Below are positions 3,761-4,119 of a DNA stretch of 64,000 nt, in pieces. The stretch covers positions 32,001-96,000 of IMG/VR virus record IMGVR_UViG_3300032325_000466. One strand, written 5' to 3'. The notes beneath the pieces were generated by a model, which did no database searches, was not told the DNA's origin, and saw only the letters and a list, made by a program, of their open reading frames with translations. The DNA is from a virus. Every line of letters begins with the position of its first letter. The first letter of the stretch is position 1. The position numbers and the translations under genes were made by a program.

Positions 3761-3858
3761 CTGCCAATCTTTCATCTCACATAAGAGACTCTATCCTGGA
3801 CTCCGCCCTTTTTCAGCATGTTTATAGTGCGCTGTGAGCCCGCGTTGCTCAACACTTA
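3761..3858 (-). ncRNA. Unassigned pseudoknotted RNA motif, copy B
   Basis: Paralog of 261-360 with compensatory stem changes; begins immediately after the attenuator U-tract. Confidence 0.7.
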
Positions 3859-3899
3859 AAAACAAAAAACCCTGAGAACTTTTTAGTTTCCCAGGGTTT
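3858..3899 (-). terminator. intrinsic terminator (attenuator)
   Basis: CCCTG-GGAAACT-AAAA-AGTTCT-CAGGG followed by TTTTTTGTTTTT. Confidence 0.9.
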
Positions 3900-3919
3900 A
3901 GATAAGTTAATGTTACACT

Positions 3920-4057
3920 TTACCTGTCGCCTGGGGTACCTCTTTGGTCATTCATCCCACGAATACTTGGTGTATAGGTTGGCGCAAACAACGCAAAGAC
4001 TGATAACAGCCATTGCTCAAGATGTTTGGATATATAATAACAAGTAAAGTTTTGCAT
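3920..4057 (-). CDS. 45-aa leader peptide (putative attenuation sensor)
   Basis: Read by hand: MQNFTCYYISKHLEQWLLSVFALFAPTYTPSIRGMNDQRGTPGDR*. Lies between a sigma70 promoter and a terminator, and its 3' end can pair with the terminator 5' arm. Confidence 0.7.
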   Translation of the reverse strand: MQNFTCYYISKHLEQWLLSVFALFAPTYTPSIRGMNDQRGTPGDR

Positions 4058-4090
4058 GGTTAATTTGTATTAAGTAAGTTATTTATCAGT

Positions 4091-4119
4091 ATTCTACAAT
4101 AAGTGTCGAATATAGTCAA
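4091..4119 (-). promoter_or_regulatory. sigma70-type promoter of the leader/tRNA operon
   Basis: TTGACT-17 bp-TAGAAT, followed by a late-type GATAAATA box at about 4080-4087. Confidence 0.85.

Follow-up and report, generated by a model that had tools for sequence, protein, structure and literature searches.

Leader-peptide attenuation is a textbook mechanism, and to our knowledge every known case governs biosynthetic enzymes by means of a codon run that monitors a single amino acid or a small set of related ones. Here we describe a putative attenuator on the minus strand of a 64,000-nucleotide stretch of viral DNA (hereafter the window; bases 32001-96000 of the 191-kb IMG/VR record IMGVR_UViG_3300032325_000466), in which a short open reading frame (ORF) and an intrinsic terminator stand ahead of a structured RNA, named motif B, and of an array of transfer RNA (tRNA) genes. 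The record has an estimated completeness of 54% and, at 191 kb, is therefore that of a jumbo phage. With the trpL, hisL, pheL, thrL, leuL and ilvL leaders the unit shares a short translated ORF, an intrinsic terminator and an antiterminator competing for the terminator's 5′ arm, together with the predicted polarity (termination when the ribosome has reached the stop codon, read-through when it has stalled upstream); in the subgroup of relatives that contains the window (group A), it also shares a segment 1 that pairs with the stop-codon region. It differs in that selection maintains roughly one codon per amino acid for all 20, with no run for a single amino acid, in that the predicted targets are tRNAs and a structured RNA instead of enzymes, in being phage-encoded, in its longer leader of about 45 codons, and in that a second group of relatives (group B) has no evident segment 1. 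Our reading, to which we assign a probability of roughly 0.7, is that of a ribosome-dependent attenuator that gates the motif B RNA, tRNA-Gln and the genes onward, and whose all-20 leader couples phage tRNA synthesis to the tRNA pool.

Other described systems resemble the unit in part. The vmlR, lmo0919, msrD/mef, ermK and bmrCD leaders likewise convert a slowed or stalled ribosome, whatever the amino acid, into terminator read-through, but they use drug-specific arrest peptides and control resistance genes; nothing here points to an arrest peptide, the spacing from the conserved Trp to R-G varies from 10 to 18 residues, and the composition of the leader points to tRNA supply. T-boxes follow the logic proposed here, in that scarcity of charged tRNA brings about antitermination ahead of translation-related genes, but they do so by direct binding of uncharged tRNA and independently of translation, whereas here a translated ORF is the conserved core. 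A T-box riboswitch was ruled out for this locus, since neither a T-box sequence nor an Rfam match to one was found in window positions 1-8000 at E ≤ 1; the same Rfam search returned tRNAs only and no known leader or small RNA family. The pyrBI and pyrE leaders share with the unit a leader ORF beside a terminator and an outcome that depends on the distance between RNA polymerase and the ribosome behind it. There, however, the ribosome prevents the terminator hairpin, close coupling gives read-through and the signal is polymerase pausing that depends on uridine triphosphate, whereas here the stop codon precedes the terminator by 23 nucleotides (nt), and termination is the expected result of a fast ribosome. 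Phage tRNA arrays seen as a reserve for a host tRNA pool under degradation or attack are comparable in offering a large block of tRNAs that covers nearly all amino acids. Published work on such arrays addresses the function of the tRNAs, and our literature search turned up neither an attenuator nor any regulatory leader of a phage tRNA array, nor a leader peptide covering all amino acids. What sets the element apart is a leader selected for all 20 amino acids, the predicted regulation of tRNAs together with a conserved structured RNA, and the setting in uncultured freshwater jumbo phages.

Folding of the window RNA reveals two competing structures (coordinates in Table 1). The terminator hairpin, at 3896-3870 and followed by a U-run to 3858, has a predicted energy of -13.1 kcal/mol; it was missed by a simple terminator scan because its loop exceeds the length that the scan allows. 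When the RNA is cut before the terminator 3′ arm, the antiterminator becomes the minimum free energy (MFE) fold, and the probability of pairing between segments 2 and 3, P(2:3), reaches 0.99. This antiterminator consists of the CCCAGG:CCTGGG helix, a 4x4 internal loop and an upper stem, H2, which holds the stop codon at 3922-3920. Within a 122-nt context the forced antiterminator has -25.2 kcal/mol against -28.5 kcal/mol for the terminator, a gap of 3.3 kcal/mol, so that the alternative fold is not far less stable than its competitor. Masking the footprint of a modelled ribosome at the stop codon lowers P(2:3) to 0, whereas a ribosome modelled as stalled upstream, or no ribosome at all, leaves it at 0.99 as long as the 3′ arm does not yet exist. 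The attenuation model rests on this order of RNA synthesis, which, as follows from the sequence under such modelling, would let the antiterminator form first and a ribosome at the stop codon remove it. The first-pass annotation of the locus had proposed a TTGACT-17-TAGAAT promoter, an unannotated 45-codon ORF (4057-3920), a strong terminator and an alternative hairpin built around CCCAGG in the 2:3 versus 3:4 geometry of classical attenuators, which a ribosome at the stop would block and one stalled earlier would spare; each of these was recovered as proposed, the promoter on the minus strand at 4119-4091.

The same analysis adds a segment that the annotation had not described. The helix between segment 1 and the stop-codon region has an energy of -14.7 kcal/mol, which none of 300 shuffles equalled, and it is because of this pairing that the whole promoter-to-terminator transcript folds better than shuffled sequence (z = -3.2). 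A pairing of segment 1 at p ≤ 0.05 was obtained for 21 of 40 group-A leaders, with two alternative solutions within the group, AACTTGT:ACAAGTT just after the stop codon and ACTTTAC:GTAAAGT across it, while a search for a conserved segment 1 in group-B leaders found none. The helix competes with the upper antiterminator and, together with the terminator, wins in the finished naked RNA; in the model it does not form before the terminator 3′ arm exists. These observations give moderate support to segment 1 as the counterpart of the classical attenuator segment 1, completing the 1:2 / 2:3 / 3:4 layout in the window's subgroup.

To place the element among its relatives, homologous units were gathered from metagenomic contigs. 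A neighbour-protein search, with the 201-amino-acid (aa) ORF at 4441-5046 as query, and nhmmer supplied the first four; a motif B pattern search then yielded 33 loci, the group-B terminator pattern (GGACCCYAGG...CCCTGGGG) alone at least 120 and the window-type terminator pattern 45. Altogether about 140 distinct units on metagenomic phage contigs form the two main groups and several outliers. All relatives are metagenomic and their sequences are akin, so the counts given below are not independent events; kinship was addressed by a clade-freezing test and by a test of Cys and His positions. The DNA runs that hold the attenuator region are lake and freshwater metagenomes. Among GenBank phages, blastn with the window region matched only the tRNA-Gln and no relative of the element, blastn with the L040 unit gave zero matches, and tblastn with two leader peptides found no relative either; a tblastn match in a regulator gene of an E. 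coli phage (E = 3e-3) is weak and was taken as chance. The element is at home in a large group of uncultured freshwater jumbo phages, and no cultured phage in GenBank was found to have the region.

Across this family the two predicted folds are maintained together. Complementarity between the ORF 3′ end and the terminator 5′ arm beats shuffled sequence in 22 of the first 24 homologues, and in nascent RNA cut before the 3′ arm the MFE structure pairs the ORF end with the terminator 5′ arm in 134 of 139 leaders. The stop codon always lies inside this pairing, 22-34 nt before the terminator. In MAFFT alignments built without reference to structure, 85% of the antiterminator helix cells are paired, versus 18-55% when the partner is slid, and between 23 and 30 of the 30 aligned sequences retain the H2 pairs (columns 160-165 with 189-194). 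Changes on both sides of a pair occur at six pairs (11 sequences) and at three pairs (30 sequences). At the antiterminator pair of columns 149:203, C-G is replaced by U-A in six sequences; the G to A change at column 203 leaves the terminator partner a U, so that G-U becomes A-U there, and the C to U change at column 149 costs the peptide an amino-acid change from Pro to Ser. Further cases come from individual loci: L057, an outlier, carries the unrelated but perfectly complementary segments GGCTTCCTT:AAGGAAGCC, another outlier, L033, carries CCGAGGATT:AATCCTCGG, L042 has gained a pair by a compensating insertion, and L034 exchanges G-C for A-U at a position outside the terminator stem. The group-B MAFFT alignment had segment 2 out of register between rows; it was excluded from the pair counts, and alignment-free tests were used instead. 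Judged from these comparisons, the mutually exclusive terminator and antiterminator folds are conserved and covarying across about 140 related elements.

The composition of the leader peptide provides the second line of evidence. All 20 amino acids occur in the window peptide, which uses 33 different codons, whereas such completeness is reached by only 1.6% of 45-residue windows in the phage's own proteins. Among 141 distinct leaders (median 46 aa), 118 are complete, one of them as short as 35 aa, compared with 2.6% expected at 45 aa under a null of independent, identically distributed residues drawn from the leaders' pooled composition; after clustering at 50% identity, complete members are found in 9 of 13 clusters. 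Each of the rare residues (C, D, H, W and Y) has a mean of 1.0-1.3 copies per peptide and is absent from only 0-6 of the 141, where a Poisson expectation would leave 39-50 without it. A single Cys is present in 119 of the 141 peptides, its distance to the conserved Trp taking 24 different values, and for the single His 15 such distances occur; since both positions shift so widely, inheritance alone fails to explain the all-20 content. This was further strengthened by a conservative test that froze the residues shared between clades, in which 10 of 16 clades were complete versus 3.4 expected, a value that none of 200,000 simulations reached. These statistics identify the all-20 content as a selected property of the family and no quirk of the window. 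Rare residues that stay at about one copy while their positions drift are hard to explain unless the decoding of each amino acid matters. That the unit would sense tRNA or amino-acid supply is a strong inference.

The codon-level claims of the first-pass annotation fared unevenly. Its observation that no control-codon run exists holds for the leaders as a family, in which all 20 amino acids are found instead, mostly 1-3 times each, and its idea of codon diversity receives support family-wide, where synonymous-codon diversity exceeds expectation (mean z +1.7). The 33 distinct codons of the window that it had stressed are by contrast what the amino-acid content predicts (32.1 +/- 2.0, P = 0.42). 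Likewise, the proposal that leader codons are those read by the downstream tRNAs was rejected for the window, with 33-36 of 45 codons (73-80%) so read compared with 73-77% in phage genes. Codons for 21 of the 23 phage anticodons do occur in the leader (P = 0.007), because its amino acids are diverse. A leader set that mirrors the phage tRNA set was also rejected: the genome G001 has tRNA-Cys and tRNA-Val while its leader is without Cys and Val, and that leader has Tyr while the genome shows no tRNA-Tyr.

Several observations argue for translation of the leader ORF. It remains uninterrupted over 34-58 codons in all distinct homologues, in DNA whose AT-richness makes stops frequent. In close leader pairs the ratio of nonsynonymous to synonymous substitution rates (dN/dS) is 0.10-0.27 and the changes fall mostly at third codon positions, as in the pair L059/L053, with 3/5/18 differences at codon positions 1/2/3 and a dN/dS of 0.10, and in the pair of the window with L059 (0.18); values of 0.24-0.36 were obtained for L041/L044/L062. 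Many pairs are only moderately low, at 0.4-0.7, and some lie above 1. Fixed residues across the leaders include M-x-N, Trp, P-x-Y, S-I-R-G or Y-D-R, and P-G. By this substitution pattern the ORF is translated, under a peptide constraint that is moderate and not strong and that therefore fits a leader better than an enzyme-like protein. The promoter matches 10 of 12 consensus positions, and near-consensus promoters stand at the equivalent place in relatives, which share the order of promoter before ORF; transcription probably starts near 4084. Shine-Dalgarno sequences are absent from group-A relatives, and group B has GGA/AAGGA 6-9 nt before the ATG.

What the unit would control was examined from the downstream arrangement. 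The genome has 26 tRNA genes, all on the strand of the element and all downstream of it within 10.5 kb, and in three genomes the unit directly precedes the first gene of arrays of 26, 25 and 41 tRNAs. At all 74 loci chosen by terminator sequence alone, the unit is followed by motif B and then by a same-strand tRNA (within 174-1159 nt). The terminator-to-motif B distance is 2-67 nt at 24 loci, about 172-227 nt at 49, where a 50-codon ORF (ORF2) lies in between, and 637 nt at one. A sigma70-like promoter between terminator and motif B was seen at 3 of the 74 loci, and a search of the window for a minus-strand promoter-like site between 3858 and 3697 found none. The first helix of motif B (AGTGT...GCACT) covaries and begins 1-5 nt after the U-run, which indicates transcription from upstream; with no promoter in between in the window, motif B there would be made only by terminator read-through and would thus be the first regulated product.

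Table 1. Features of the putative attenuator unit and its immediate targets in the window (window coordinates)
Feature	Position	Strand	Description or basis
Promoter, sigma70-type	4091..4119	-	TTGACT 4119-4114, 17-nt spacer, TAGAAT 4096-4091
5′ untranslated region (UTR)	4058..4084	-	short, A/U-rich, without Shine-Dalgarno; from sequence
Leader ORF	3920..4057	-	45 codons + TAA, all 20 amino acids; ATG at 4057, TAA 3922-3920
Segment 1, ACUUUACUUGUU	4039..4050	-	codons 3-7; 12-bp helix with 3928-3917, stop-codon region
Segment 2, CCCAGG	3930..3935	-	within codons 41-43; pairs with CCTGGG 3895-3890 of segment 3
Hairpin H2, antiterminator top	3900..3925	-	AGGTAA(A)G 3925-3918 : CTTATCT 3906-3900
Terminator 5′ arm = segment 3, CCCTGGGAA	3888..3896	-	folding and conservation in relatives
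Terminator 3′ arm = segment 4, TTCTCAGGG	3870..3878	-	folding and conservation in relatives
Terminator U-run, TTTTTTGTTTTT	3858..3869	-	from sequence
Motif B structured RNA	3698..3857	-	starts directly after the U-run, without own promoter
tRNA-Gln(UUG)	3623..3697	-	first of 26 same-strand tRNA genes; array extends past window start

Taken together, the structural features of a leader-peptide attenuator are present with the exception of the control-codon run, whose place is taken by the one-of-each content, and the following course may be proposed. RNA polymerase would start at the promoter and transcribe the leader ORF, and in the emerging RNA segment 2 and the stop-codon hairpin would pair with the terminator 5′ arm, forming the antiterminator and allowing read-through to motif B and the tRNAs. 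A fast ribosome that reaches the stop codon would sit on or inside the antiterminator and free the 5′ arm for the 3′ arm, leading to termination at the U-run, whereas a ribosome held earlier in the ORF would leave the antiterminator intact; a delay at any codon up to about codon 36 should accordingly give read-through. As each amino acid is mostly encoded once or twice, a shortage of any single charged tRNA would delay the ribosome and increase read-through, and abundant tRNAs would shut the switch off again. The direction of the switch, its kinetics and charged-tRNA supply as its signal are what we infer from this arrangement. Single codons are weak sensors of mild starvation but should respond to the severe loss of one tRNA, which fits the annotation's idea of a response to tRNA depletion or cleavage. 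A link to anticodon nucleases and starvation is plausible. We would tentatively go one step further, to a sensor of the whole tRNA pool, in which the loss of any charged tRNA, whether by decay after host shut-off, by starvation or by anticodon nucleases, switches on the array as a self-limiting, inducible counter-defence, the phage tRNAs then restoring translation and so turning the switch off; this is a serious candidate that we hold with rather less confidence than the attenuator itself.

A number of points weigh against the attenuator reading. In the complete window RNA at equilibrium, the terminator and the segment-1 helix win in nearly all states, and the probability of the antiterminator is ≤0.47 even with segment 1 masked; as equilibrium folding favours termination in most states, read-through must be kinetic, as in known attenuators. 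The window ORF has weak translation start signals, being without a Shine-Dalgarno sequence. Segment 2 lies 8-13 nt ahead of the stop codon in the window and at a median gap of 6 nt in group A, but in group B it ends a median 18 nt before the stop, where a terminating ribosome would presumably block the pairing sterically rather than by covering it. The leader is not tuned to the phage's own tRNAs, its codon match being no better than chance, and the mismatch described for Cys and Val in G001 points the same way. The leaders of L003, L025, L033 and L054 have only 34-35 aa, lack 2-4 amino acids and stand before a terminator that is followed by a promoter, which would suit relaxed selection on the sensor, and those of L041, L044 and L062 also miss amino acids. 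Furthermore, single codons give a less sharp response than do the runs in classical attenuators. One lake metatranscriptome run, which shared 8% of sampled words, placed nothing on 3600-4200 and speaks neither for nor against.

The structural evidence would look identical if the ribosome-driven switch reported translation capacity in general instead of how much of each charged tRNA is available. The signal would then lie in ribosome availability, in the coupling of transcription to translation, in host shut-off or in translation inhibitors, and the all-20 content would serve another purpose or be a side effect. Such a switch would suit the absence of control-codon runs, the lack of enrichment for codons read by phage tRNAs, and group B, whose naked RNA should read through by default as no segment 1 was found there. 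We nevertheless consider it unlikely, since it leaves unexplained both the retention of rare residues at about one copy while positions shift and the excess synonymous-codon diversity. It is also conceivable that the ORF encodes a small protein with its own job, that the terminated transcript of about 225 nt is a stable trans-acting RNA in the manner of rnTrpL/peTrpL, or both, with the alternative fold mainly shaping RNA stability or limiting re-translation instead of regulating tRNA genes. The fixed peptide residues, the folding of the whole transcript (z = -3.2) and the pairing of the group-A 5′ end with the stop-codon region all accord with such a product, as do the dual-function attenuator products that have been described (PMC6614838, PMC7298713). 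Pfam and PHROGs, however, contain no family that matches the leader peptides, the dN/dS of many pairs is only moderately low, and near segment 2 the peptide changes from Pro to Ser to preserve an RNA pair as C-G becomes U-A; a stand-alone gene would, moreover, need neither a covarying terminator competitor nor promoter-less RNA genes behind it. An independent function is therefore quite improbable as the explanation of the locus, although it could hold alongside attenuation.

A switch set by something other than the ribosome, be it a protein of phage or host or, as in a T-box, a tRNA bound directly to the leader RNA, with the ORF incidental, would find a possible binding site in the conserved terminator loop (ACUAAAAA-like) and the ACTAAATAAA motif near the 5′ end. 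It has to contend with the lack of any Rfam match, T-box included, at E ≤ 1, with an ORF that is conserved through coding-type changes and whose all-20 content would stay unexplained, and with a stop codon that is always inside the antiterminator at 22-34 nt before the terminator, and we give it only a very slim chance. If the attenuator that senses tRNA supply is real, it directly answers how phages control their tRNA arrays; it would also mean that phages monitor the tRNA pool of the cell, which bears on phage tRNAs as a response to host tRNA-cleaving defences. The unit comprises about 260 bp with a sigma70-type promoter and an intrinsic terminator, and the reading predicts that losing the single Cys codon abolishes the response to Cys shortage only.

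Further observations concern the leader and its surroundings. In lake-metagenome contigs of close relatives, a plus-strand C>T at 4041 changes Cys6, the leader's only Cys, to Tyr, and a T>C at 3927 in the same contigs changes Asp44 to Gly inside the antiterminator internal loop. The (G)ACTAAATAAA motif recurs in the promoter spacer of group B (L040:5110-5135 and others) and in the 5′ UTR of group A (window 4075-4082), and is similar to the loop conserved in the terminator (ACTAAAAA/ATTAAAAA); a protein or an RNA could make contact there.

Motif B, which matches no Rfam family, has a hairpin whose stem covaries and whose loop, AACG(A/C)GG, is conserved, as well as a conserved block GCACTATAAACATG...GGGCGG. 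ORF2 (about 50 aa) lies between terminator and motif B at L038:5991-6140 (-), L037, L043, L053, L058, L059 and about 50 group-B loci and is absent from the window; it has a Shine-Dalgarno sequence and no promoter of its own, and therefore depends on read-through too, and it matches no family in Pfam or PHROGs. A near-consensus promoter, TTGACAG-17-GATACAAT, stands after the terminator and before motif B at L003:8040-8075, L025, L033 and L054. A tie between incomplete leaders and a spacer or promoter after the terminator was considered for group B and dropped, as no association was found (Fisher P = 1.0).

Within the array, the 26 tRNA genes cover 19 amino acids; Tyr, the twentieth, rests on one tRNA whose anticodon loop is odd and which ARAGORN left unassigned. 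A tRNA-like gene of that kind, located outside the window (G000:C1:29501-29574) and reported as '???' (ta), may be the array's missing tRNA-Tyr. Upstream, the 201-aa ORF at 4441-5046 matched no family, and a 204-aa ORF at 5003-5614 (-), which lies immediately beyond the unit's neighbourhood, encodes a cell-wall hydrolase (Pfam Hydrolase_2, E = 7e-20). Directly after homologues of the 201-aa protein, a tRNA with anticodon CUA, called 'Pyl' by ARAGORN, is found at L014:6945-7019, L015:6799-6873 and L016:6799-6873; it may be an amber suppressor, hinting at stop-codon reassignment in those phages. Inside the tRNA array of the window lie two endonuclease-type genes that overlap tail to tail, one at 1414-2289 (+) with a weak GIY-YIG match (E = 0.0014, below the Pfam cut-off) and one at 2272-2832 (-) that is a clear HNH endonuclease (E = 8e-16).

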